Shown piece by piece: positions 1,183 to 19,805 of a stretch of 62,475 bases of DNA. The notes beneath the pieces were generated by a model that was not told the DNA's origin, did not search any database, and was given only the letters and a program-made list of their open reading frames with translations. Position 1 is the first letter of the stretch. Every line of letters begins with the position of its first letter. Source of the stretch: a virus (lineage: Duplodnaviria; Caudoviricetes); the IMG/VR virus record IMGVR_UViG_3300048599_000246, positions 1 through 62,475 of that record. One strand, given 5' to 3'. The position numbers were made by a program, and so were the translations under genes.

Positions 1183-1685
1183 CGTGTTTATCGTCAGGGC
1201 AGGGAACTCCCGTAAGGGAGATGAGCGCAGAGTTGTTTTTTGGGAGACGCGAAGCTCCCGCCCCGCTCATTGGGGGCATGGGCCATTCGTTTCCGGCCCC
1301 TATATGTATTACGACTTTAGCGGCCGTTTTGTTAACGCCCTCTTGAAAGATAATAAGCCGCCTCGTCAGTTCATGCAACTGCTGACGATGTATCTATGCG
1401 TTTCAGAAGTCGTATTTCGATACTTCTAGAAGTAAGGAATTCCGTCTCTAGTTTTAGAGTATTACTTTATACCGTTCCTCCGTCCTAACGGACGGAAGGC
1501 CTGGGAACCGGGCGGCGCGACGATCCCGGCGAGCCCCGGCCCTCGTTCCGTCCGTCCCGGATCGAAAAACGACGCCCGCCAGGCGAGCCCAGAGCGTCCC
1601 GAGTGGCGAATCCGCGCGAAAACGCCCCAGTAAATTTGTACAACTGTTGGAGATATTTTTTTTACGGCTTTTTTCGGGAAAGTCC

Positions 1686-1714
1686 TTGAAATCTCTTCAG
1701 CAGAAGTATTTAAT
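1686..1714 (+). promoter_or_regulatory. Candidate sigma70 early promoter TTGAAA-N17-TTTAAT with an AT-rich upstream (UP-like) tract
   Basis: Near-consensus hexamers with 17-bp spacing in an AT-rich island between the divergent arms. Confidence 0.6.
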
Positions 1715-1720
1715 AGGAAC

Positions 1721-2230
1721 TTCGGCCGGGCGGTTGGACCGAGTCGATCTCTGAAAATAGAGCGGACAGCCGGGTAGAGGATGGCAGGCGGCGCGCTCGC
1801 GAATAGCTGGACCGGGACCGAGACGCGGAAGCGTAGCGAAGACGGGCGGTGGGAAGCGGGCGAGGATAGCGCAGCCCACTGCCGAGAGGCGGCGGGCAAC
1901 CTTACGGCCGAGAGGCAGCAGGGCACAGAATCGAGACGCCGCCGGAAAGAGAGGCGGACAGAGGAGAACGCGGGAGCCACGCGGTAGACCAGAAAGCACG
2001 CCCAGAGCACGCGCCGCCGAATTGGAACGTGGACAGTCCCCCTCAGGGGTAGGCAAGCCTCTGGTGCGGTCGCCTTCGGGCGGCCCCAAGCAAACGACAG
2101 CGAATGAGGGGCGCGGCACGGTTGACCATAGGGACCGGGAACGGCGGATCTAACGAGATCCCCCCGACGCGCAGCAGGCGCGGTCGGCAGCGACGACGAA
2201 AGGCCTTCCCTCAATCGAGGGAAGGAAATA
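1721..2230 (+). ncRNA. Putative large structured ncRNA or 5' leader
   Basis: No credible ORF; GNRA hairpins at 1823-1834, 1879-1892 and 1907-1916, a cUUCGg hairpin at 2068-2085, and a stem at 2205-2224. Confidence 0.4.
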
Positions 2231-2253
2231 TAATAGAGGAGCGGAAAAGAGAT

Positions 2254-2460
2254 ATGCAGATGACGGACGCACAAGTCCTCACCGTAGTATTAGCGACGGT
2301 CCCGACGTTCGTGGTCGTGATCCTGGGGCTGTTCCTGAACAACTCCAGATTGAACGATCTGAAGGACCTCCTCCGAGCGGAGATGGCGAAGAACCAGGCG
2401 GAATTGCTTCTAAAACTCGCGCAGGTTCATTCGCCCGCTCAGCCGGAAACTTCGCATTAA
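2254..2460 (+). CDS. Small single-pass membrane/coiled-coil protein
   Basis: GAGGAGCGGAAA RBS; hydrophobic N-terminus then NNSRLNDLKDLLRAEM. Confidence 0.7.
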   Translation: MQMTDAQVLTVVLATVPTFVVVILGLFLNNSRLNDLKDLLRAEMAKNQAELLLKLAQVHSPAQPETSH

Positions 2461-2464
2461 CGGA

Positions 2465-2497
2465 ACGGGCGGCCTGATCGCAGGTCGCCCGTTTTCC
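2465..2497 (+). terminator. Hairpin / possible intrinsic terminator
   Basis: acgggcggcctg-atcg-caggtcgcccgt followed by a short T-rich tract. Confidence 0.45.
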
Positions 2498-2556
2498 TCA
2501 CTCCCCTAAAACCCCAACCAGAACGACAAAAAATGACGCGCGATCTTTGCGCGTCC

Positions 2557-2615
2557 ACCCGCAAACACTGGGCGCCTCCACGCGGCGCGGGCGGGATCTC
2601 TATGCCAAGACCCAG
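2557..2615 (+). ncRNA. HDV-like ribozyme copy 1 (short P1 variant)
   Basis: P1 acccgc/gcgggc, P2 ctggg/cccag, P3 gcc/ggc, L3 tccacgc, P1.1 GG, J4/2 CCAA. Confidence 0.65.
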
Positions 2616-2639
2616 AACGGTGACAGGAGCGGAAATCCT

Positions 2640-2894
2640 ATGACAAATGCGAATCTGAAGCGTCGCAACGACTATGCGCAGCGGCGCCTGGTCGAGTTGA
2701 GCGCGCCCACCTTGGAGCGCGCCGAATTCGTCCCGGCGAGGACGATTATGGAAGCCGGCGCACGCTTGGCGCGGCAGATCCGGATTGAGCATGAGCGGGT
2801 GGGACTCCTCCGGCGCTCGTGCGGCGGGAGCGGCCGGACGGTGGACGCGAGCGCCTATCACTACGATTCGCGCGCCACGCAGCCGGCAAGATAG
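2640..2894 (+). CDS. Hypothetical early protein
   Basis: AGGAGCGGAAA RBS directly after ribozyme 1. Confidence 0.65.
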   Translation: MTNANLKRRNDYAQRRLVELSAPTLERAEFVPARTIMEAGARLARQIRIEHERVGLLRRSCGGSGRTVDASAYHYDSRATQPAR

Positions 2895-2906
2895 ATCGGA
2901 GCGGCC

Positions 2907-3152
2907 ATGACCATCACAATCAGCAACGATTACCACGGAACGAAAACCACGGCCCGCGTGGGCGAAGATGGAAAACTCAGCAAGCGCCAGATATACCGGA
3001 TCCGCCGGGCGCTGTGCGGTATGCCAGAATGCCGGTGCGGTCAAGGCCCCTTGAAACAACTTGGGCCGCAAGAACTGTTGCCAAACGGGGAACGCTGGGC
3101 GGCCGAGGACATGGGTCGCCTTGGCGTGGTGATCCGTATCTACCCGTTCTAA
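2907..3152 (+). CDS. Hypothetical early protein (CxxxxCxC motif)
   Basis: GGAGCGG RBS; ALCGMPECRCG. Confidence 0.65.
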   Translation: MTITISNDYHGTKTTARVGEDGKLSKRQIYRIRRALCGMPECRCGQGPLKQLGPQELLPNGERWAAEDMGRLGVVIRIYPF

Positions 3153-3214
3153 CCCCAACTAAAGTGTCCCTTTCGGGGCGGCGTCCTGCCGCCCCGGTCC
3201 CCTGAAATCTAATT

Positions 3215-3276
3215 GCCCCGCAAGAAACCGGGCGCCTCCACGTGGCGCGGGGTGGAAGCTGTACGCGAAGTCCCGG
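3215..3276 (+). ncRNA. HDV-like ribozyme copy 2
   Basis: P1 gccccgc/gcggggt (G-U wobble at the cleavage site), P2 ccggg/cccgg, P3 gcc/ggc, L3 tccacgt, GG, J4/2 CGAA. Confidence 0.8.
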
Positions 3277-3305
3277 CCAAACGACAACGGAGAGGGAGCG
3301 GAAAA

Positions 3306-4346
3306 ATGGCAGCGAGAAAGAAGTCCACAAAGAAGGCAGCAACTGTCTGCCCGAGCGATCCGGAAGACGCGCGGACGGCGCTGGAACTCGGGGTGCTGAC
3401 AGTGGGCGCGTTGTACCGCGTCACACGGACGGAAACGGATTTCGATTTTCTGGAGGGCGACCTGCTGAGGTTCATGTCCGCCGATGGCCGCCGGTATTCG
3501 TTCACGGATGAAGCGGGCTCACTGGTTACCGTTGTGGCAACCGAGGACCAACTGTCGTCCATCCTGGAGTCCAGCGACAGGCCACGAGCGGCGGCGCCCG
3601 CAGAGGAACTTGAAGGGCGAGACAACGCGTGCCGGACGTGCGGTGCCAAATACGCCGATGGCGGCGACGGGTTCGATGGCGAATGCCCTTCCTGCGCTGA
3701 CCGGAGAGCCGCGGCGGCGGAGGAAAACGGCACATCCACTGTCGAGACGGTGACCGAGGACCCCCCCGAGAGCGCGGCCCCGGCCGTGGAGCCTGGCAAG
3801 AGGGGGAAACGGACGAAGGCGACCCCGAAGACGAAGGGCGGCAAGAAGGGCAAGAAGACGCCCCAGACGGTCCCCGAGTCGGCGCCGGTGGAAGCGTCCG
3901 CGGAGGCCCCGGCGGCGGCCCCGGAACCGTCCCAGGCCCCGGCGGCGCAGGTCGAGACGGGCGACCCGGTGCTCGAAGCGGGGCTCGAAGCGCACGTGGC
4001 CGCGGCGGTCGCCGCCAAAGTGGAAGCGATCGAGGTCCCGAAAACGGACGCCTGGGAACCGGATATCTTGTTCGTCCGGCTGAAGGGCGACATTGTGGCG
4101 CTGGTGGCCGCGGGGAACGTCGCGGAAGCGGTGCGGCGTCTGAAACTCGCGCTCTGCCCGCCGGAAGCGAAAGAGCGGAAGCCGCGCGAGCCGAAGGCCC
4201 CGAAAGTGGATGGTCCGTGCAAGTGCCCGGTTTGCGGCGCCGGATCGGGGAATCGGCAAGGCGTAGTGGCGCATCTCCGGACGAAGCACGGGTACACGAG
4301 GGAACAATGGCAAGCCGCGATGGCAACACCCGCAGCGGCGGCCTAA
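3306..4346 (+). CDS. Low-complexity (Ala/Pro/Lys) protein with a C4 zinc ribbon and a C-terminal C2H2 zinc finger
   Basis: CRTC...CPSC and CPVC...HLRTKH; GGGAGCGGAAAA RBS. Confidence 0.7.
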   Translation: MAARKKSTKKAATVCPSDPEDARTALELGVLTVGALYRVTRTETDFDFLEGDLLRFMSADGRRYSFTDEAGSLVTVVATEDQLSSILESSDRPRAAAPAEELEGRDNACRTCGAKYADGGDGFDGECPSCADRRAAAAEENGTSTVETVTEDPPESAAPAVEPGKRGKRTKATPKTKGGKKGKKTPQTVPESAPVEASAEAPAAAPEPSQAPAAQVETGDPVLEAGLEAHVAAAVAAKVEAIEVPKTDAWEPDILFVRLKGDIVALVAAGNVAEAVRRLKLALCPPEAKERKPREPKAPKVDGPCKCPVCGAGSGNRQGVVAHLRTKHGYTREQWQAAMATPAAAA

Positions 4347-4351
4347 CAGGT

Positions 4352-4777
4352 TTGCAGTTGCCGCTCCTCGGAGGCGGGCGCCCCGCGGTGCTCGCCTCCG
4401 CTTGTTTGTGCGGGCAGCGTTGCCGGTGGCACGGGAAGCCGACGAGCAAGCACCCGCGCGTGCGAGCACTGGAGCGAAGCGGCGAGACGGTTGTACCGAT
4501 CTGCCCCGAGATGCTGGGCGGACTCCCTTGTCCTCGGCCACCAGTCACACGGCGGCGCGGGCGACTATACCAGACGGACGCGGAGACGCGCACGCTGCGA
4601 GGCCGCGACGTAACGGCGGCGTTCGAGCGCGGCGCGGCGGAAGCGGTGCGGATCGCGCGCGAGACGGGCGCGACAGAAGCGTACCTCTGCATGCGGTCGC
4701 CGTCGTGCGATCCGGACGGCGGAGTAACGGCCCGCGCGCTGGCGGCGGCCGGGTTGAAATTGTACGGACTGTTTTGA
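4352..4777 (+). CDS. DUF523 family protein (2-thiouracil desulfurase/TudS-like, Fe-S)
   Basis: SACLCGQRCRWHG, PICPEMLGGLPCPR, GRDVT..F..GA and RSPSC motifs; start uncertain. Confidence 0.8.
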   Translation: MQLPLLGGGRPAVLASACLCGQRCRWHGKPTSKHPRVRALERSGETVVPICPEMLGGLPCPRPPVTRRRGRLYQTDAETRTLRGRDVTAAFERGAAEAVRIARETGATEAYLCMRSPSCDPDGGVTARALAAAGLKLYGLF

Positions 4778-4793
4778 CGAAAGGGTGCATTGA

Positions 4794-4967
4794 ATGCGAG
4801 ACAAAGTGAAGGTCACGATCACATCGGAAGACGGAGAAGTTCTGGACGACTTCACCGTTTGCCATTGGCGCTACGACTGCGGCGACGACGACCAGGAGAA
4901 CATCGGGTCCCGGGCGTCGGAAGCGCTCTTCCTGGACCGCTTTCGCCGCGTAGTGAAAGCACACTGA
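4794..4967 (+). CDS. Small hypothetical protein (57 aa, MRDKVKVTITSEDGEVLDDF...)
   Basis: Manual translation; fills the gap and ends just before the hairpin of ribozyme 3. Confidence 0.6.
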   Translation: MRDKVKVTITSEDGEVLDDFTVCHWRYDCGDDDQENIGSRASEALFLDRFRRVVKAH

Positions 4968-4990
4968 GGAAACGGCGGCGAGAGCCGCCA

Positions 4991-5048
4991 GCCCCGCAAA
5001 GACCGGACGCCTCCACGTGGCGCGGGGTGGGCAGTGCCAAGGACGGTC
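4991..5048 (+). ncRNA. HDV-like ribozyme copy 3 (P4-less minimal)
   Basis: P1 gccccgc/gcggggt, P2 gaccg/cggtc, P3 gcc/ggc, L3 tccacgt, GG, 6-nt linker, J4/2 CCAA. Confidence 0.8.
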
Positions 5049-5074
5049 GACCATAACAAGGAGCGGAAAATACC

Positions 5075-5599
5075 ATGACTTATAAGTTTCTGTCGGCGGA
5101 CACGCCGGATATAGAGAAAGTGGCTGCGACGATTCCGGACTTGGAGGATTTCTTCCAGGCGGCGCTCGACTACAGCGAGCTAGGGAAGGGCAAGTCCCTG
5201 GATTTCGCGATGGGAGTAGACGCCAAGTTTGCCCTACCGAGCACTGAATTCTCGCAAGCGTTAATCGACAAGATGTTCGACCTCTCGCGCGTGATTACGC
5301 CCAAGGGCGCCATCGGCAGCAGCTTCCTGACCGGCTTCAGTTTCGGCGCGTTGTACTATGCCGCGACCGCGGAGCCCACGCGTGAAACCCTCGCGCAGGT
5401 TTCGGACCTCCGCCACGTCTGGCTGGAACTTAAAGCGGCACGTGCCACGGCGGCGGCGGCAGCGGCAGAAGAGAAACACGAACAGCCCGAACCGGCGGCC
5501 CAGAGCAGCAACGACCTGGACATCAAGATCACGGTCAACGGGCAGACCGTCAAGCCGGGCCAGGCTATCACTATCCCGATAAACGGGTCCGCCTCGTAA
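5075..5599 (+). CDS. Hypothetical early protein
   Basis: AAGGAGCGGAAAA RBS after ribozyme 3. Confidence 0.7.
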   Translation: MTYKFLSADTPDIEKVAATIPDLEDFFQAALDYSELGKGKSLDFAMGVDAKFALPSTEFSQALIDKMFDLSRVITPKGAIGSSFLTGFSFGALYYAATAEPTRETLAQVSDLRHVWLELKAARATAAAAAAEEKHEQPEPAAQSSNDLDIKITVNGQTVKPGQAITIPINGSAS

Positions 5600-5654
5600 C
5601 TTTCCTCCGCAGAACTTCTCCTTAGTCTGTCCCCCGGTTTGCCGCCGGGGGATT

Positions 5655-5717
5655 GCCCCGCAAACATACGGGCGCCTCCACGCGGCGCGGGGTGTAGCTG
5701 TACGCCAAGACCCGATG
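5655..5717 (+). ncRNA. HDV-like ribozyme copy 4
   Basis: P1 gccccgc/gcggggt, P2 cat.cggg/cccgatg, P3 gcc/ggc, L3 tccacgc, single-G P1.1, J4/2 CCAA. Confidence 0.75.
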
Positions 5718-5729
5718 AAGGGAGCGGAA

Positions 5730-6656
5730 ATGCAGGCAGCGAAATTGGTGAGCGCCCCGGAGGTTCTTCCCCCGGAAGCGTGCGATTTCTCGGCGTTCGT
5801 CGCCGAACGCGGACGGCCGCCGTTCCTCGGCGATCAGCCCGCACCGTGGCACTATCGGGGCTGGCTGCTCTGGTACGTGCTGCTGGCGCAGGAGACGCAT
5901 CCGGACGTGCCCGACCGTTGGGGATATTGGGCGCGAACGATGCAGGCGGGGCGGCTGCTAGACGAACCGATCCCGCGCGTCGAATTCTCGGACTCGGCCG
6001 ATGCGGCGGTGACTCGCGACCTTGAAAAGTGGATCGGCATTCTCGATGAGAAGTTCGGAAGTTGGTCCAGTCTGTATCGGTTGCTCGATTGGCTGGCCTG
6101 GGGCCTGGCGGTTTCGCAGGAAGACCCCGACCTGTCGGAAGATGTTTCCGAAAAACTGTACCGCGCGGTGGACATCGGGCCGATGCTACTTCACCCGCAC
6201 GACTACCTGGGGAATTGCCTCGCCGAGTTGAAATCGGGCGGGCATGGGAAATGGAAGAACCCAAGCGGGTTCTACCCGACGCCGCATTGCGTAGTCGAGT
6301 GCATGGTCCGGATGACGATGGCCGACAGCAAAGGCCAGGATATGCGGCGCGCGAGCGTATGCGATCCCTGCGTAGGGACGGGCCGAATGCTGCTCCACGC
6401 GAGCAACTACAGTCTGAACCTCTGGGGAATGGATATCGACCCGGTTGTGACTCGGGCCTGCCTGATAAACGGCGCATTGTATGCGCCCTGGCTGGTGCGG
6501 CCGTTTCCTCCGTCGATTCTGGAGCGGACGCCGATTGCACTTCCACCGCCGGCCCCGTTGCCGGTCCCTCCAGAATATACGCCGGTCGACGGCGCGCCAG
6601 TGTTTCGCTGTGACGACCTCGGCCGCGGCCTTCTCCCTTTCATGCTTGACGAGTAA
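5730..6656 (+). CDS. N6-adenine DNA methyltransferase-like protein (HsdM-type SAM-binding region)
   Basis: GFYPTP and DPCVGTGRMLL (motifs X/I), GMDID; no NPPY-type motif seen. Confidence 0.7.
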   Translation: MQAAKLVSAPEVLPPEACDFSAFVAERGRPPFLGDQPAPWHYRGWLLWYVLLAQETHPDVPDRWGYWARTMQAGRLLDEPIPRVEFSDSADAAVTRDLEKWIGILDEKFGSWSSLYRLLDWLAWGLAVSQEDPDLSEDVSEKLYRAVDIGPMLLHPHDYLGNCLAELKSGGHGKWKNPSGFYPTPHCVVECMVRMTMADSKGQDMRRASVCDPCVGTGRMLLHASNYSLNLWGMDIDPVVTRACLINGALYAPWLVRPFPPSILERTPIALPPPAPLPVPPEYTPVDGAPVFRCDDLGRGLLPFMLDE

Positions 6657-6673
6657 CCCGGCGGAAGCCGGGA

Positions 6674-6729
6674 ACCCCGCAATACCGGAAGCGTCCACGT
6701 TCGCGCGGGGCGGGTTGCGCCAATTCCGG
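6674..6729 (+). ncRNA. HDV-like ribozyme copy 5
   Basis: P1 accccgc/gcggggc, P2 ccggaa/ttccgg, P3 gcg/cgc (compensatory change), L3 tccacgtt, GG, J4/2 CCAA. Confidence 0.75.
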
Positions 6730-6756
6730 ACGGTGACTTAGGAGCGGAAAACGAAA

Positions 6757-8241
6757 ATGACAACGCAATTCCTGAAGTCTTTCAAGGCGGCGCGCCGAGT
6801 GAGCACGCCGATAATCGCTATCGGTACTCCCGACCCCGCGGCGACGATACAGAATGTCGTCAGGGCGCTGAACGGTTCCGCGCCCCCGGTGATCCAGTGG
6901 GACATCGCGCGCGGCGTGACACCGTGCAATCAGCAGGGCGGTCAGGCCATCGCGGCGATCTTTGGCGACCCGAGCGTAGAGACGAACCCGGCCGAATTCC
7001 TGATGAAAGCCGCCCAACTCCCCGAGGCCGTCTGCCTGTTCTTCCACAACGCGCAGCGATACCTGAAGAATGAGGCCGTTGTGCAGGCGGTTTGGAACCT
7101 GCGCGATCAGTTCAAGGCGGATCGGCGGACATTGGTTCTACTCTGCCCCGCGGGCGGAATGGTGGTGCCGGTGGAATTGGCAAACGACGTTCTCACGCTG
7201 GACGAACCGCTCCCGACGCTCGCGGAATTGGGCGGCATCGTAAAAGAGCAGTTCGATTCAGCGGACCTCCCGGTGCCGAAACCTGAGGACGTAGAGCGCG
7301 CGACAGATGCGTTATGCGGTCTGGCCGCATTCCCGGCTGAACAGGCGACGGCCATGTCGCTCACCGCGGAAGGCCTCGACTTCGATGCCTTATGGGAGCG
7401 CAAGCGCAAGATGATTGAACAGACCCCCGGTCTGTCGGTCTGGCGTGGCGGCGAGACGTTCGACCAAATCGGCGGATGCGGAAACGTGAAGCAGTTCATG
7501 GTTGACGTACTCCGCGGCGCAGATTCCCCGCGCGGGATCGTCTTCATTGACGAAATAGAGAAAGCGGTTTCGGGGACAGGTCCGGACTTGTCCGGAGTGT
7601 CCACCGAGATGCTGGGAACGTTGCTGACGTGGATGCAGGACAACCAGGCGACGGGCGTTATTTTCATCGGGCCTCCCGGAGCGGCCAAGTCCGCCGTCGC
7701 GAAAGCGACCGGCAACACGGCGGGCGTCCCCACTATTCAGTTCGACCTGTCGGGGATGAAAGCATCGCTGGTGGGAGAAAGCGGCGCCCGGTTGCGCCAG
7801 GCGCTGAAGGTGGTCGAGGCAGTCACCCAGAACCGCACGTTGTTCGTTGCGACATGCAACTCTATCGGCGCGTTGCCCCCGGAACTCCGCAGGCGTTTCA
7901 CGTTCGGCACGTTTTTCTTCGACCTCCCGGACGCGGAGGAACGCGCGACCATCTGGGAAATCTACTGCAAAAAATTCGGCGTTGGCGGCGAACTTCCATC
8001 AGACGAAGGCTGGACCGGCGCGGAAATCCGGCAATGCTGCGACCTCGCGCGACGGTTGAAGTGTTCACTCGAACGGGCTTCGCATTTCATCGTTCCCGTC
8101 TGCCGTAGCGCAGCGGAGCAGATTGAACGACTGCGGACGCAGGCGTCCGGCAAGTTCACTAGTGCGAGTCATGACGGCCCGTATCGCTTCGAGCAGAAAC
8201 GCGCGGCGGCGACGGGGCGCGCTATCGCGATGGGGGAATAG
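6757..8241 (+). CDS. Ycf46/SpoVK-type AAA+ ATPase with swapped Walker A/B segments
   Basis: ETFDQIGG, FIDEIEK...LLTWMQD, then GPPGAAKS, VGESG, FVATCNSI..LPPEL.RRF...FFFDLP, WTGAEI. Confidence 0.85.
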   Translation: MTTQFLKSFKAARRVSTPIIAIGTPDPAATIQNVVRALNGSAPPVIQWDIARGVTPCNQQGGQAIAAIFGDPSVETNPAEFLMKAAQLPEAVCLFFHNAQRYLKNEAVVQAVWNLRDQFKADRRTLVLLCPAGGMVVPVELANDVLTLDEPLPTLAELGGIVKEQFDSADLPVPKPEDVERATDALCGLAAFPAEQATAMSLTAEGLDFDALWERKRKMIEQTPGLSVWRGGETFDQIGGCGNVKQFMVDVLRGADSPRGIVFIDEIEKAVSGTGPDLSGVSTEMLGTLLTWMQDNQATGVIFIGPPGAAKSAVAKATGNTAGVPTIQFDLSGMKASLVGESGARLRQALKVVEAVTQNRTLFVATCNSIGALPPELRRRFTFGTFFFDLPDAEERATIWEIYCKKFGVGGELPSDEGWTGAEIRQCCDLARRLKCSLERASHFIVPVCRSAAEQIERLRTQASGKFTSASHDGPYRFEQKRAAATGRAIAMGE

Positions 8242-8472
8242 GCGGTGTTGCCCCACGATCAGAGGAGCAGCACGCCGTTGCTTCATTCACTGCACCCGAA
8301 TCGAACACGAGGGGTTTCGAGGACCGGAACTGGCGGAAGTTTGAACGAAACGAGCCGTCTGCTGGTGGGCCTCGCTTGGATGCGCACGGCGGAAATCGGC
8401 GTGCTTCACAATCGCGAATTCGAGCGGCGGGTCCACGTTCGGCACGACCCCGATATGGAGAGCTTCTAGACC

Positions 8473-9252
8473 ATGACCAGCGAATCGGCGAGCCTCTACT
8501 TCCGCGCAGGCACGAGCGATAAGGTCTACCAAATTTGGCTTGAGCCGGAACCGGACATTCCCGAAATGCGTTCGTGGCGCGTCAGGTTCGCGTATGGGCG
8601 GCGCCTTGCGACGCTGCGGTCCAATTTTAAGATCCGGCGGGCACCGTTCGCTTATGCGCGGCAGATTTACGATAAGTCCCTCTTGGAGAAACTTTCCAAG
8701 GGGTATCGCAAGGGACCGGAGTACACGAAGGGTGTGGAGATTCCTCCGCTCGAAGCAGAGCCCGCACCCACGGTTCGTAAACGGTTCGAGCCCTTCGCGC
8801 GACCTACCACGGCTTACAATCCCTTCGAGCCGGAGTCTTTGAGGGGAGACACATTGCCGACTTGCGGCTATTGCGGGCAGCCCGTCCGGCTGTTCTTCCC
8901 GGACGGAACGCGCGTTCGTGATACGCGGTATTGTTCGGCGCGTTGCGCGGGCCTCGCCGCAAAGCGCGAAGCAGCCCGGACAGAACGGGCGAAACCTACA
9001 TGGAACGCCACTTGCTCTTACTGCGGGCGCGCGGTTCGGCTCGAAGTCGGCGGCTTCCTGGATGAGACTTCCGGGAGATGGTATTGCTCCGGCGCGTGTA
9101 GGAACGCGGACCAACGACGCGGCGCGCCGATCTTCCGGAAACCTCTGAAGTCCAAACCGAAACCCGTTCCCAGGCCGGCGTATGAACCGCCGGAACCTCC
9201 AGACCCGCTCACGGTGAAACCGCGGCGGCGAATCTCGTTTAACGACGAATAG
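8473..9252 (+). CDS. WGR-domain protein with C-terminal zinc ribbons
   Basis: LYFRAGTSDKVY...FAYGRR...KLSKGY; two CxxC...YCSxxC motifs. Confidence 0.7.
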   Translation: MTSESASLYFRAGTSDKVYQIWLEPEPDIPEMRSWRVRFAYGRRLATLRSNFKIRRAPFAYARQIYDKSLLEKLSKGYRKGPEYTKGVEIPPLEAEPAPTVRKRFEPFARPTTAYNPFEPESLRGDTLPTCGYCGQPVRLFFPDGTRVRDTRYCSARCAGLAAKREAARTERAKPTWNATCSYCGRAVRLEVGGFLDETSGRWYCSGACRNADQRRGAPIFRKPLKSKPKPVPRPAYEPPEPPDPLTVKPRRRISFNDE

Positions 9253-9263
9253 GAAAGGATCTT

Positions 9264-9608
9264 ATGCCTTGCTGGACGATACAAGAATCGAAACTCGAAG
9301 TAAAGAATCTCAACCAGGACGTGCTGACGGCCACGCTTGAATCCCTTGGCTACGTAGTGCAGCGCAGGGGTGAACAGTTTTATGCGGACCACATGAAGCC
9401 GGGCGAACTCCGCTACACGGTGGTCTGCATGAAGGATGGCGAAATGGTCGTGCAGTTGCGCGACGGTTCGCGGGTGACGGCGGAGCGCGCAATGCGGCAG
9501 GTGAAGGTCGCCTATGGGCAGACGGCCATCCGGACGATGGCAAAACGGTTCGGGTGGCAGGTGAAGCAGGAAGACGAAACTCATTTCCAGGTGATGCGGC
9601 GGTATTGA
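9264..9608 (+). CDS. DUF1257/Ycf35-like protein
   Basis: L..TLESLGY...VKVAYG...AKRFGWQV pattern; context downstream of the Ycf46-like ATPase. Confidence 0.55.
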   Translation: MPCWTIQESKLEVKNLNQDVLTATLESLGYVVQRRGEQFYADHMKPGELRYTVVCMKDGEMVVQLRDGSRVTAERAMRQVKVAYGQTAIRTMAKRFGWQVKQEDETHFQVMRRY

Positions 9609-9618
9609 GGAGCGGACG

Positions 9619-9840
9619 ATGCAGAACGACACTATCGAAATCGAAATCATCGAAGCGGACGGCTCGTTGAAAGTGACGACGGACAAAATCAGCCAGGCGA
9701 ACCACCTGAACGCTGATGCGCTGTTGCGCGAGATGGGGCGCGTGATGGGCGGCGAGACGATCCGGACACACCGAAAGGACTCGTATGGACACGTCCACGA
9801 ACACGTCCACGAACACGAGCACGAGCATAACCATGCCTAA
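9619..9840 (+). CDS. DUF2997-like small protein with a His-rich tail
   Basis: IEIEI..DGSLKVTT; HVHEHVHEHEHEH tail; operon context. Confidence 0.55.
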   Translation: MQNDTIEIEIIEADGSLKVTTDKISQANHLNADALLREMGRVMGGETIRTHRKDSYGHVHEHVHEHEHEHNHA

Positions 9841-10108
9841 TATTTCCGTCCTGGACTTGAAGCCGGTGGGTAGGTTTGCGGACGGGAGCCCTATTTACAG
9901 GTTCTCGGTGGGGTTCCCCACGCGTGGTGTGCAGGAAGTCGGTCCCGCGTTCGCCACTCCGCAGGAAGCCTACGCCCACGGCGGGGTGGAACTTCGCAAG
10001 TATGAGGCGGCAGACCCGATGGGAAACATGGGCGCGGTGTTGGGCGTCACGGAAGTTGAGGGCGGCGGATTCCGCGCGGTGATCGTTACGTATCACTCGA
10101 ACACTTGA
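9833..10108 (+). CDS. Hypothetical protein
   Basis: Overlaps the upstream stop; protein-like composition. Confidence 0.55.
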   Translation: MPNISVLDLKPVGRFADGSPIYRFSVGFPTRGVQEVGPAFATPQEAYAHGGVELRKYEAADPMGNMGAVLGVTEVEGGGFRAVIVTYHSNT

Positions 10109-10274
10109 AGCCCGCCGCAACGGCCCCGAAAGGACGGTGATGAATAGCGGGCGGATCCGGACGGCGCATTATCGCGGGGAGCCTCGGGGGAGGCGGCGAA
10201 TGGATGCGACGGGCGGACCCGCTACACGAACCAGATTGAAGACAATCCGAAGCCCGCGCGCAGCCGCGCGGGTT

Positions 10275-10330
10275 GCCCCGCCGAACAGGCGGCCTCCACG
10301 TGGCGCGGGGCGGGTGGTGCTGACGGCCTG
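10275..10330 (+). ncRNA. HDV-like ribozyme copy 6
   Basis: P1 gccccgc/gcggggc, P2 caggc/gcctg, P3 gcc/ggc, L3 tccacgt, GG, J4/2 CTGA. Confidence 0.8.
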
Positions 10331-10363
10331 AGTGAAGAGTGGACCAAAGGAGCGGAAAACGAA

Positions 10364-11395
10364 ATGGCTACTTCTATGATGTCGATGGAAACGACGGGCA
10401 CGATCCCCGGAAATCTGCTGACGGACCAGGGCGAGAAACCCACGGCGCTTCAGGTAACGCGCGCGGCCACGCTGACAGACAAGGCGGTTTGCGTACAGAT
10501 CGAATTGCACGGTATCGGCTGCCGGCGCACGGTTTCAACCTCACAGATCGAGGTCACCGGCGATGCAGATAAGGCGACCGACAAGACGTTGCTCGCCGCG
10601 TCCAAAAAACTGTTCGTCTCGCCGGAGTATGACCGGCTCAAAAAACTGGACGGTCGGATTCGGCAATACGTCTACGCCCAGGCGATTCAGAGTGGACTGT
10701 CGAGCGGGTTCTATTGGCTCCCGATCCCGGCGGTTCAACGGGTCCACGAGAAGCTGAAAGAGTTTCGCGCGGAACGTCAGAAAATCATTGATGAGTGGAC
10801 CACCCCGCTCGAAGGCGAAACGCAGTCGCCCTACGAGAAAGAAATCGACGCGATACAGCCGAAACTCGGCCCTTTGTTCAACCGCGGCGATTACCTCTCA
10901 GTGGACCGCGTCCGCAAGATGCACTGGTTTGAATGGTCTTACGTCTCGTTTGGCGCCCCGGAAAAACTGAAGTCCATCTCAATCGAGATGTACCAGGCGG
11001 CGCAAGACCAGGCGGCGCGGAAGGTGGAACAGGCGGCGGAACTGGCGCAGCAAGTCCTCCGGGCCAACATGCTCAAACTGGTCGAGCACCTGACGGATAA
11101 ACTCTCCGGCCGCACCGAGGACGGGAAGCGCAAGGCGTTTCGCACCGAGTCGGTCGACAAGGTGAAAACGTTCCTCACGGAGTTTCGCGAGCGGAACATC
11201 ACGGATGACGCTGAACTGGGCGCCCTGGTGGAAGATGCGAAACTGCTGATCGCTGGCGTCGACCCGGAAACGCTCCGCAAGGACGACCGGACACGCGACC
11301 TGGTAGCGGAGGGATTTTCTCAGATCCAGGCACGGCTCGACACGATGGTCGTGGACCGGCCCAGGCGAGCAATTTCGTTCAAGGACGAGGAATAG
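10364..11395 (+). CDS. DUF3150-like protein
   Basis: ASKKLF, GFYWLP, FNRGDY, NITDDAEL..LV..A pattern; AAGGAGCGGAAAA RBS. Confidence 0.6.
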   Translation: MATSMMSMETTGTIPGNLLTDQGEKPTALQVTRAATLTDKAVCVQIELHGIGCRRTVSTSQIEVTGDADKATDKTLLAASKKLFVSPEYDRLKKLDGRIRQYVYAQAIQSGLSSGFYWLPIPAVQRVHEKLKEFRAERQKIIDEWTTPLEGETQSPYEKEIDAIQPKLGPLFNRGDYLSVDRVRKMHWFEWSYVSFGAPEKLKSISIEMYQAAQDQAARKVEQAAELAQQVLRANMLKLVEHLTDKLSGRTEDGKRKAFRTESVDKVKTFLTEFRERNITDDAELGALVEDAKLLIAGVDPETLRKDDRTRDLVAEGFSQIQARLDTMVVDRPRRAISFKDEE

Positions 11396-11397
11396 CG

Positions 11398-12648
11398 ATG
11401 TCTGCCCCCGAAGACGCCCCGGTATGCGCCGTTTGCGGGCGGCCGGTCCGCACCGAAATCGTCCACGTTCGGGAGGGGAAGCCGTGCCATCCGCTCTGCT
11501 TCCCCCTCGGGGACCACCCCGAGGCCCAGAACGACCCGGAAGACGCCGCAGAAACGGCCACAGACAGCGCCCAGGATCCCCCAGACGAGCCGGAGGGCGG
11601 CGCCGGGACGGAGAGACGCAACCGGCGCGGCGAGACGCCCACGGACGCGGCGGCGCGCAGGGAGCGCGAAGCGGCAGAATGGCGGGAACGGATCGAAGCA
11701 TTGCGGACGGCGGACCCGGCAGAGGGGCCGATGGATTTCTACGAGCCGTTCCTGCGCGCGATCCGGATGCACGAGCCCGGCGGTTCCGTCCACGAGTCGA
11801 ATATCACGCTAAACAGCCAGTGCTGGGCGCTTAGCGCGGAGGCGACGAGTATGCAGTTTTTCGCGCTCGCGAAACTCGTTCAGGAAGGAATCCTCGAACC
11901 CGACGCGGACCTCTGCGGACAGTACACGATTCACCGGGAGAGGTTCCCAGACGAAGGCCGCGACTATTTCGCGGAAGCGCTCGAATGGTTGGCGCACAAG
12001 TGCGTTACCGAGAGCGTAGACGACCACTCGTTGAAATACCAACTGAACATCTATGACGGAGCCGACCGCGAAGCGGTGCTCGCCCGGCTCCAGTCCGAGG
12101 GGTTTATCAACGCGAAGCAGAAAATCCTGAAGCGTCCGGAGGGCGCGACGGCCGAGTGCCACGTATTCAACCCGTCGAAGTTTGGCGAGGCGGAAATCCG
12201 AATCTGCCGGCATGAAGGCGGCGGCTTCGCGGTGCGAGTCGGTTGTAGCGTGGACTTCGGCAAGAGTAACGGCAGCGGCCAGTGGTGCCCGGTTCGCGCG
12301 CCGGGGACCACGTTTGAAGACGAGCACGGATGGTCGACGCGAGACGCGGCGCTCGAGGCGGGCTGTATCGAAGTCGCGCGTATCGAGGAGGGATGCGAAC
12401 AGGCGGCCTTGTCGAAGGGCGCGGAGAAGGCGGCCGATGCGGCGCGGAAAATCCGCGCGTGGGCCGAGATGTTATTGAAGCGGCCGATACCGCGGCAGCA
12501 CAGCGTGGAAAGTCGGCCGGAGCGTGGCGGAGAGACGGAAAAGAACCGCCGCGAAACCGAGGCAACAAGCGAGGCCACACCGGGAAAGCGGAAACCGGCG
12601 GAGCCCGAGAAAAACTCTACGGTGAGCGAACAACTCACCCTCTTTTGA
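11398..12648 (+). CDS. Hypothetical protein
   Basis: 416 aa ORF in operon; ends in QLTLF, which resembles a beta-clamp-binding motif. Confidence 0.65.
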   Translation: MSAPEDAPVCAVCGRPVRTEIVHVREGKPCHPLCFPLGDHPEAQNDPEDAAETATDSAQDPPDEPEGGAGTERRNRRGETPTDAAARREREAAEWRERIEALRTADPAEGPMDFYEPFLRAIRMHEPGGSVHESNITLNSQCWALSAEATSMQFFALAKLVQEGILEPDADLCGQYTIHRERFPDEGRDYFAEALEWLAHKCVTESVDDHSLKYQLNIYDGADREAVLARLQSEGFINAKQKILKRPEGATAECHVFNPSKFGEAEIRICRHEGGGFAVRVGCSVDFGKSNGSGQWCPVRAPGTTFEDEHGWSTRDAALEAGCIEVARIEEGCEQAALSKGAEKAADAARKIRAWAEMLLKRPIPRQHSVESRPERGGETEKNRRETEATSEATPGKRKPAEPEKNSTVSEQLTLF

Positions 12649-19326: not shown

Positions 19327-19805
19327 TCTGCCCACAAAAAAGAGGGTCCGCTGGTGAGGCGGACCCCGTTGTTTGGTGACAACTTTTTGCAAGGAGCGGA
19401 AACCCTTGCAGAGAGACAGAATGAACCCCACTCGTAAGGGAGAACATGTGTCAACACGATACTACACCAAGTATTCAACTGGTTCAAACTTCTCTGCTTC
19501 TTCAGTCGGCACGTTGCCCCCCCTGTAGGGGCAGTATGCGCCCGGAGACTGGCGGCAACATTTTCACCGCGAAACGTTTGGGCCAGGGTAGAATAGAGAC
19601 ACCCCCGGCGGCCTGGCATCCGTCGAGGGGATCAATTTCTCGGCTCCGAGTGGAGGGAGCCTCAAGTAGGCCGGCGCGGCGAGGAGGCCGCGAACCGGAA
19701 TCAATGCGTCAATGGAGGACGCACCGATGAAACTAGTTTACCAGAAAAGCCCCCTGCGCGTTGGACAAAAGCAGGGGCGCAGCAAGTGTGCCCCGGAGAT
19801 CCGGA

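Follow-up and report, generated by a model that had tools for sequence, protein, structure and literature searches.

The DNA analysed here, called the window throughout, is a complete IMG/VR virus record (IMGVR_UViG_3300048599_000246, Caudoviricetes); it measures 62,475 bp and carries direct terminal repeats. On the plus strand of its left arm lie six cassettes, each made up of a hairpin, a minimal ribozyme of the hepatitis delta virus (HDV)-like type and a start motif with its start codon. They occupy about 8 kb, one per intergenic gap, and every ribozyme is in sense orientation relative to the genes. With the predicted cut site (+1) set where the covariance-model and Rfam alignments begin, we place the cuts of copies 1 to 6 at 2556, 3215, 4991, 5655, 6674 and 10275, respectively. 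A preliminary description of this DNA had listed hairpins, ribozymes, motif and start codons, and on reading the sequence we found all of them at or beside the positions assigned there.

The genes that follow the cassettes, all on the plus strand, are an 84-amino-acid open reading frame (ORF; ATG 2640), a 346-amino-acid ORF (ATG 3306), a 174-amino-acid ORF (ATG 5075), a 308-amino-acid ORF with a weak N6-methylase-like match (ATG 5730), a 494-amino-acid AAA ATPase (ATG 6757) and a 343-amino-acid ORF conserved in 53 of 59 related loci (ATG 10364). Among the left-arm proteins tested, the N6-methylase-like ORF, the AAA ATPase and a MazG-like ORF gave weak or generic family matches only, and the remaining ones matched no known family.

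When the six copies are aligned, they display one order of elements. A 7-nt strand, mostly GCCCCGC, is followed by a variable linker, a variable strand of 4–6 nt, GCC, TCCACG(Y) and GGC; the 3′ half consists of the complement of the 7-nt strand, GG, 5–9 variable nucleotides, an invariant GC with (N)AA, and the complement of the variable strand. Judging by sequence, we assign these elements to P1, J1/2, P2, P3, L3, P3′, P1′, P1.1, (mini-P4), J4/2 and P2′ of hepatitis-delta-type ribozymes with a minimal P4, i.e., the stretch from P1.1 to the invariant GC is only 5–9 nt long. L3 (TCCACG) is invariant in the six copies and fits the HDV-like U-C-C-N-C-G type. The GC ahead of (N)AA, likewise invariant, aligns with GCUAAG of the Rfam family RF02682 (HDV-F-prausnitzii), and its C at the start of J4/2 is the presumed catalytic cytosine. 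P1.1 reads GG in five of the six copies and GT in copy 4; it is seen as sequence only and is too invariant to be judged by covariation.

We built a covariance model (CM) from the six window copies with P1 and P3 only, leaving P2 out. With filters off, a search of the window returned exactly these six copies at 62.6–75.4 bits, the next best match scoring 14.4 bits. Ribozyme 1 (2556–2615; CM 70.7 bits, RF02682 18.9 bits) has an A·C mismatch at P1 pair 2 and CTGGG/CCCAG as P2. Ribozyme 2 (3215–3276; 70.3 and 23.0 bits) pairs GCCCCGC with GCGGGGT in P1, beginning with a G·U pair, and CCGGG with CCCGG in P2. P2 is GACCG/CGGTC in ribozyme 3 (4991–5048; 75.4 and 28.3 bits), and ribozyme 4 (5655–5714; 68.3 and 27.5 bits) is the copy with GT in place of the P1.1 GG. 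Ribozyme 5 (6674–6729; CM 67.4 bits, no RF02682 match) combines P3 GCG/CGC with P2 CCGGAA/TTCCGG, and ribozyme 6 (10275–10330; 62.6 and 22.6 bits) has P2 CAGGC/GCCTG and GCTGAC in J4/2 compared with GCNAAG. Position 1 of RF02682 fell on +1 in each of the five copies that this model aligned.

Covariation was analysed over 26 aligned model matches; these sequences are related, the alignment was fitted to P1 and P3, and P2 was written as a pseudoknot. Standard pairs filled 92.2% of the cells, compared with 37.8–48.7% after the 3′ partners had been slid by 1–3 columns, and 11 of the 15 pairs changed on both sides. On four of five measures the observed values were reached by none of 500 shuffles; for pair types they were reached by 15 of 500. 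P1 was paired in 98.9% of cells with both-sided changes in five of seven pairs, and its first pair is G·U, G-C or C-G in four of the six window copies. P3 was paired in 98.7%, and copy 5 shows the change from GCC/GGC to GCG/CGC. For P2, which lay outside the model, both-sided changes occurred in four of five pairs at a pairing of 76.4%, a figure lowered because four rows with a long P4 were misaligned at their 3′ ends; by eye we counted at least 15 different complementary P2 pairs. An unanchored search for P2 discriminated little (mean 5.9 bp for own strands and 4.6 bp for the control, with 48% of mismatched pairs reaching 5 bp). Covariation in P1, P2 and P3 thus upholds the earlier assignment of the elements to HDV-like ribozymes by fold, for which self-cleavage is a predicted property. 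A reading as DNA-level repeats or promoters was rejected on the grounds of covariation and strand bias.

Exact identity shared between window copies extends over only 10–23 nt. Copies 1 and 5 both carry ACGGTGAC directly 3′ of P2 (2616–2625 and 6730–6740), and copies 2 and 4 have a AGCTGTACGC P4 region in common. Such mosaic similarity suggests that copies may have exchanged sequence.

Hairpins in the window were defined strictly, i.e., as a perfect stem of at least 6 bp with a loop of 3–8 nt. In five of the six copies a GC-rich hairpin ends 0–2 nt before the predicted cut, with predicted stabilities from −12.4 to −19.1 kcal/mol. Hairpin 1 (2535–2555) has a perfect stem of 7 bp, or 9 bp in the fold, and abuts the cut at 0 nt, a spacing that depends on the P1 register (−13.0 kcal/mol). 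Hairpin 3 (4974–4989; 6 bp, GAGA loop, −12.5 kcal/mol) ends 1 nt before the cut, hairpin 4 (5630–5652; 8 bp perfect, 10 bp in the fold, −19.1 kcal/mol) 2 nt before it. Hairpin 5 (6657–6672; 6 bp, GGAA loop, −12.4 kcal/mol) stands directly 3′ of the stop codon at 6654–6656 and 1 nt from the cut, and hairpin 6 (10253–10272; 8 bp, −17.7 kcal/mol) is 2 nt away. The exception is hairpin 2 (3174–3196; 8–9 bp). The stop codons precede the hairpins of copies 5, 3 and 4 by 0, 6 and 30 nt, respectively. The tight spacing described earlier is therefore present in five copies; its range is 0–2 nt and not the 1–2 nt given before.

Hairpins of this kind ending 0–2 nt upstream were found at 0.63% of all plus-strand positions and at 1.0% of the positions that a crude gene model leaves as non-coding. 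For at least five of six, the binomial P value is about 6 × 10⁻¹¹ (all plus-strand positions) or 6 × 10⁻¹⁰ (non-coding positions). A looser metric, any closed structure of up to 44 nt, was discarded, as 22% of random positions reached −12 kcal/mol with it. The window hairpins are unrelated to each other in sequence, and a mobile element carrying the hairpin was therefore rejected.

Downstream of the ribozymes, the perfect 10-mer GGAGCGGAAA precedes all six genes. Together with the ATG it spans 2626–2642, 3295–3308, 5060–5077, 5721–5732 (where motif and ATG overlap), 6741–6759 and 10349–10366 in cassettes 1 to 6, and the ATG lies at +84, +91, +84, +75, +83 and +89, respectively. The broader pattern GGAGCGGAA[A/C] occurs 11 times on the plus strand, and nine of these copies are 5–12 nt before a start codon; three of the nine, at 2238, 14587 and 26795, have no ribozyme. 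Hence a cassette with motif and ATG holds for all six copies as previously described, but the motif is not specific to the cassettes: GGAGCGGAAA is a general start motif of this phage and not a component of the ribozyme unit. Its perfect form at all six genes fits a standardised, strong initiation region. One of the two motif copies not linked to a start lies at 19340–19420, where a terminator-like hairpin is followed by GGAGCGGAAA inside a small stem (gcaagg...ccttgc), with no start at the usual distance.

We then looked for the same layout in other phages. An exact 17-base core pattern identified 39 loci on viral contigs, 28 of which matched the CM at E ≤ 0.01. On bacterial genome contigs with the same 17-mer, which served as control, only 2 of 80 loci did so. 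The 17-mer by itself thus does not create a model match, and phages are enriched for the class. We dropped a looser, structural DNA pattern run over viral contigs; its hits were mostly chance, with a CM match in 2 of 80 listed loci. The comparison set comprised 27 distinct non-window ribozymes, 25 from viral contigs and 2 from contigs of bacterial metagenome-assembled genomes, and the window copies were kept separate. Neither cassette 3 nor a segment of locus L138 had a match among GenBank phages, and locus L156 had only an irrelevant one of 131 bp.

With hairpins outside the window defined as stems of at least 6 bp with at most one G·U pair and a loop of 3–10 nt, a hairpin ended 0–5 nt before +1 in 23 of the 27 instances and 0–2 nt before it in 14 of 27. 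Background in the same loci was 5.2% and 2.7%, respectively, giving nominal P values of 5 × 10⁻²⁶ and 1 × 10⁻¹⁵, which overstate independence because the loci fall, by eye, into about 16–18 families. The non-window instances contain 22 different hairpin sequences. Position is thus conserved and sequence is not, in the window as well as in 23 of 27 instances elsewhere, as had been supposed from the window copies. One ribozyme lineage retains the hairpin, with differing arms, across ten homologous loci, where RNAalifold predicts six pairs, three of them with compensatory changes. Related loci keep the spacing between hairpin and cut, a point on which the preliminary description could have failed.

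Four instances depart from this. One has its hairpin 7 nt away in an N-containing stretch, another has a 5-bp stem just below the threshold, and the remaining two are copies of L140, a 200-kb phage record with a tRNA array. In one of these the ribozyme +1 at 3456 coincides with the 3′ end of a tRNA-Met (3384–3456). The other, with +1 at 1317, has no hairpin nearby, and the first tRNA follows it at a distance of about 720 nt. Since a CM derived from the window finds a copy that abuts a tRNA, we conclude that the hairpin sits at the place of the tRNA in theta ribozymes, which is what had been suggested. The window itself contains no tRNA genes according to ARAGORN, so none of its predicted cuts lies within 5 nt of a tRNA 3′ end, as is the rule for the tRNA-associated theta subgroup.

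For 10 of the 16 instances examined, the longest upstream frame terminates at a stop codon within the hairpin, often in a loop of the GTAA/GTGA type, and the predicted new 3′ end is then 8–15 nt past the stop. Five cassettes in a row were found on a 15.9-kb phage fragment (L156/G002), ordered, by eye, as stop, hairpin, 2–5 nt, ribozyme with full P4, A-rich linker, GGAGG and ATG. On the same fragment, L156:4285–4345 has a hairpin with a stop in the loop, an acat spacer, the P1 5′ strand with J1/2 (GCCCCAC GAAC) and then a Shine–Dalgarno (SD) motif and ATG, the rest of the ribozyme being absent. Among the five intact cassettes it gives the impression of one that has decayed or recombined. The other phages with cassettes use an ordinary GGAGG in place of the window motif. 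Among 24 non-window instances, 17 have an SD-like motif and a start with an open frame at +75 to +120; two have starts at +58 and +62 (a doubtful script call), one at +172, and in four no SD motif with start was found within 260 nt of the cut.

From this anatomy we propose, with moderate confidence, that the cassettes are natural mRNA-processing and insulator units that act in cis within a polycistronic phage transcript. RNA polymerase would transcribe a gene to its end and continue past the GC-rich hairpin there, and the minimal ribozyme just downstream would fold and cut at its own 5′ edge. By analogy with HDV-like ribozymes, a cut 5′ of +1 should yield a 2′,3′-cyclic phosphate upstream and a 5′-OH downstream. 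The upstream message would then end in a stable stem-loop with a tail of 0–5 nt and a cyclic phosphate, offering little grip to 3′ exonucleases and poly(A) polymerase, and the pre-formed hairpin would stop the upstream coding sequence from mispairing with the ribozyme. The downstream message would begin with a 5′-OH and a compact ribozyme fold, followed by a near-constant leader (ATG at +75 to +91) with the same start motif. In this way, each gene would be translated independently of its upstream neighbour, and no host nuclease would be needed. To attack a stem-loop, 3′ exonucleases need a single-stranded tail of about 7 nt or more, poly(A) polymerase requires a 3′-OH, and 5′-end-dependent nucleases prefer a 5′-monophosphate. 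The observed tails of 0–5 nt fit protection of the 3′ end.

A number of results weigh against such processing units. The hairpin of copy 2 lies 18 nt upstream of its cut, further away than in the other copies, as already recognised. The binomial P values count related loci as independent, and by eye there are only about 16–18 locus families. The nested-fold energy of hairpin plus ribozyme was no different from that of shuffles (z from −1.25 to +0.30). At gathering score, Rfam gave no match over the window; in E-value mode RF02682 reached 18.9–28.3 bits against a cut-off of 44 on five of six copies and left copy 5 unmatched, and RF00094 (HDV_ribozyme) matched copy 3 only, at 24.4 bits against a cut-off of 50. 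Single copies have blemishes, i.e., A·C within P1 in copy 1, an A·C first pair in copy 5, GT for the P1.1 GG in copy 4 and the unusual J4/2 of copy 6. Finally, homologues of the AAA ATPase identify 59 viral loci (identity up to 66%), none of which has a ribozyme match to either of two models within 10 kb. Genes abut directly in these relatives, and the two closest have plain short spacers around the ATPase gene.

Because these 59 related loci do without ribozymes, we regard the cassettes as a lineage-specific addition to a conserved module and not as a necessity for it. Within the module, conservation is highest for the ribozyme-led genes g8 and g14 (59/59 and 53/59 loci in tblastn), and g2, g4 and g6 have no tblastn homologue in the 59 loci. 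The methylase-like gene g7 (5730–6656), between ribozymes 4 and 5, has a homologue only in locus L173 (11653–12417, 55% identity). There it lies downstream of the ATPase gene, in the window upstream of it, and this difference in gene order coincides with cassette boundaries. The preliminary description had further suggested that a shared core promotes shuffling of gene cassettes. The sole hints are the altered order of g7 relative to L173, the nearest relative, and the ribozyme-less cassette of L156, which suggest such shuffling weakly; exact identity between copies, at only 10–23 nt, leaves the case weak.

The hairpin might instead be mainly a folding insulator, shielding P1 and P2 from GC-rich coding sequence, with any effect on the 3′ end incidental. 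The precedent is P(-1) of genomic HDV RNA, where, in the sections of the source available, a 54-nt upstream flank forms a stable hairpin that sequesters the flank, blocks the inhibitory Alt1 pairing and restores fast cleavage during co-transcriptional folding (PMC6097654). For each of the six window copies, minimum free energy (MFE) and centroid predictions alike show the hairpin as an independent stem-loop beside the ribozyme, and the unrelated hairpin sequences are as expected if sequestration alone matters. This explanation leaves open why the stop codon is so often inside the hairpin (10/16) and why a tRNA can occupy the same place. HDV moreover is a viroid-like RNA replicon and not an mRNA junction, and the same sections of PMC6097654 draw no tie to a stop codon or to 3′-end stability. 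We consider folding insulation as the main purpose unlikely. The P(-1) precedent fits such a role and is compatible with protection of the 3′ end, so that both may act together; 3′-end formation is favoured as the reason for the tight spacing.

Quite improbable, in our judgement, are leaky factor-independent terminators or pause sites, with the ribozyme only trimming read-through, as a fail-safe by which transcription units are kept apart and not as a means of operon processing. Terminators lacking U-tracts are said to serve in GC-rich bacteria, and some spacers from other phages, though few, are rich in T (tttat, cttt, ttat). In L142:8203–8260 and L129:2668–2720 we noted, by eye, promoter-like TTGTCA-17-TATATT/TACAAT after the ribozyme and no direct SD motif; there the preceding hairpin bears the stop codon and the spacer is T-rich, an arrangement that may be a fail-safe between two transcription units. 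In the window, however, no T-run follows any of the five close hairpins and none of them was terminator-like in a plus-strand scan, while the same scan did call a strong site with a 14-bp stem at 4369–4400. A scan for promoters, which covered the sigma-70-like type, found none in 1500–12000 with 1.5 expected. The space between hairpin and ATG is filled by ribozyme, linker and SD motif, and the ribozyme is transcribed only if the hairpin is read through. Between the cassettes there is thus neither room nor a sigma-70-like signal for independent transcription, which speaks against the alternative of terminators followed by promoters that had been raised at the outset.

Two further hairpins with T-rich tails, at 2468–2496 and 4369–4400 on the plus strand, follow ORFs ending at 2460 and 4346; the scan calls the second only. 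Because of these T-tailed hairpins the six cassettes may span two transcription units, with about 400 nt (4400–4794) between the units that have no assigned content. On the minus strand, where ATTTTTTG comes after it, the cassette 1 hairpin (2535–2555) is classed as terminator-like and might act as a stop for antisense transcription as well.

Equally hard to sustain are folds that do not cleave or have decayed, serving as structured translation-enhancing leaders or as DNA repeats for recombination: several copies do show non-canonical details and sub-threshold Rfam scores, and retrotransposon HDV-like ribozymes have been proposed to aid translation initiation (PMC6765202, part of the review), but the presumed catalytic C and L3 are invariant while P2, J1/2 and P4 regions have diverged, covariation keeps the full double-pseudoknot pairing scheme, every copy is on the sense strand and exact shared identity is short.

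Processing units of the kind we propose have several relatives in function. The closest are the theta and other minimal HDV-like ribozymes of Caudoviricetes, which share with the window copies a very short P4, the phage setting, the sense orientation and a structured RNA that ends at the cut. The window differs from what the available sections on theta ribozymes describe by a hairpin at the gene end, a fixed spacing to the start codon that follows and the presence of six copies within 8 kb. In Kienbeck et al. 2024 (PMC10879173), 526 hits are listed without tRNA association, 493 of them non-coding, with "unknown biological functions"; the main text does not use the word hairpin. The RNArobo descriptor of these authors asks for short J1/2 and L4 and for fixed nucleotides, and qualitatively the 5–9 nt from P1.1 to the GC in the window copies are likewise short. 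As the databases searched there include an IMG/VR release, the window copies may already figure in its hit lists. Tandem hammerheads between prophage genes, e.g., around ardA, cleave in vitro and in vivo, and operon-RNA processing was proposed for them (Perreault et al. 2011, PMC3088659). They resemble the cassettes in that the genes of a single phage-type transcript have several self-cleaving ribozymes between them; they belong to another ribozyme class, and the sections of that article available describe neither a hairpin-at-cut rule nor a fixed leader. According to a 2019 review (PMC6765202), processing of polycistronic transcripts by ribozymes has been suggested and is in need of further work. 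Our literature search, with subscription journals and supplements outside its scope, turned up no account of HDV-like ribozymes that follow a hairpin and lie ahead of a start codon.

In phage T7, a long transcript is cut between genes by host RNase III within a hairpin, and the upstream product keeps a stabilising 3′ stem-loop. The cassettes share intergenic cutting of a long phage transcript and the 3′ stem-loop on the upstream product, but the window RNA would cut itself beside the hairpin, leaving a 2′,3′-cyclic phosphate and a 5′-OH. RiboJ uses a hammerhead-type ribozyme. Like the cassettes, this part has its ribozyme ahead of the ribosome-binding site, where variable upstream RNA is removed and a uniform leader results; as presented in the sections available, it is engineered with an extra hairpin downstream of the ribozyme, whereas the window hairpin is upstream and would stay with the preceding message (PMC6206723, PMC8383906). 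PeSL cassettes of T4-type phages are likewise short repeated stem-loop cassettes between genes, lying between non-essential early genes, and they recombine with each other so that genes are shuffled (Arbiol et al. 2010, PMC2839356, as far as this source was available). They are DNA cassettes of promoter and terminator, and the shuffling demonstrated there is merely hinted at in the window. In function the window cassettes would resemble T7 RNase III sites, RiboJ and, as regards shuffling, PeSL; they are members of none of these.

Little is settled about the role of self-cleaving ribozymes in phages and bacteria. Our comparison yields a positional rule, i.e., a hairpin 0–5 nt before the cut, a stop often inside the hairpin and the next start about 75–120 nt past the cut. 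We tentatively suggest, as a possibility that we hold short of even confidence, that orphan minimal HDV-like phage ribozymes are one half of a general, host-independent device for operon punctuation. The device would comprise a gene-end hairpin with the stop often in a GNRA-type loop, a 3′ UTR made up wholly of a stem-loop with a tail of at most 5 nt and a 2′,3′-cyclic phosphate, a 3′ end resistant to exonucleases and polyadenylation, and a standard 5′-OH leader capped by the ribozyme; tRNA-linked theta ribozymes could then be a special case of this way of making 3′ ends. As natural compact parts for insulated operons, the cassettes would fix a message's 3′ end and also the 5′ end of the message after it, with host nucleases playing no part, and the positional rule gives orphan phage ribozymes a concrete, testable function.

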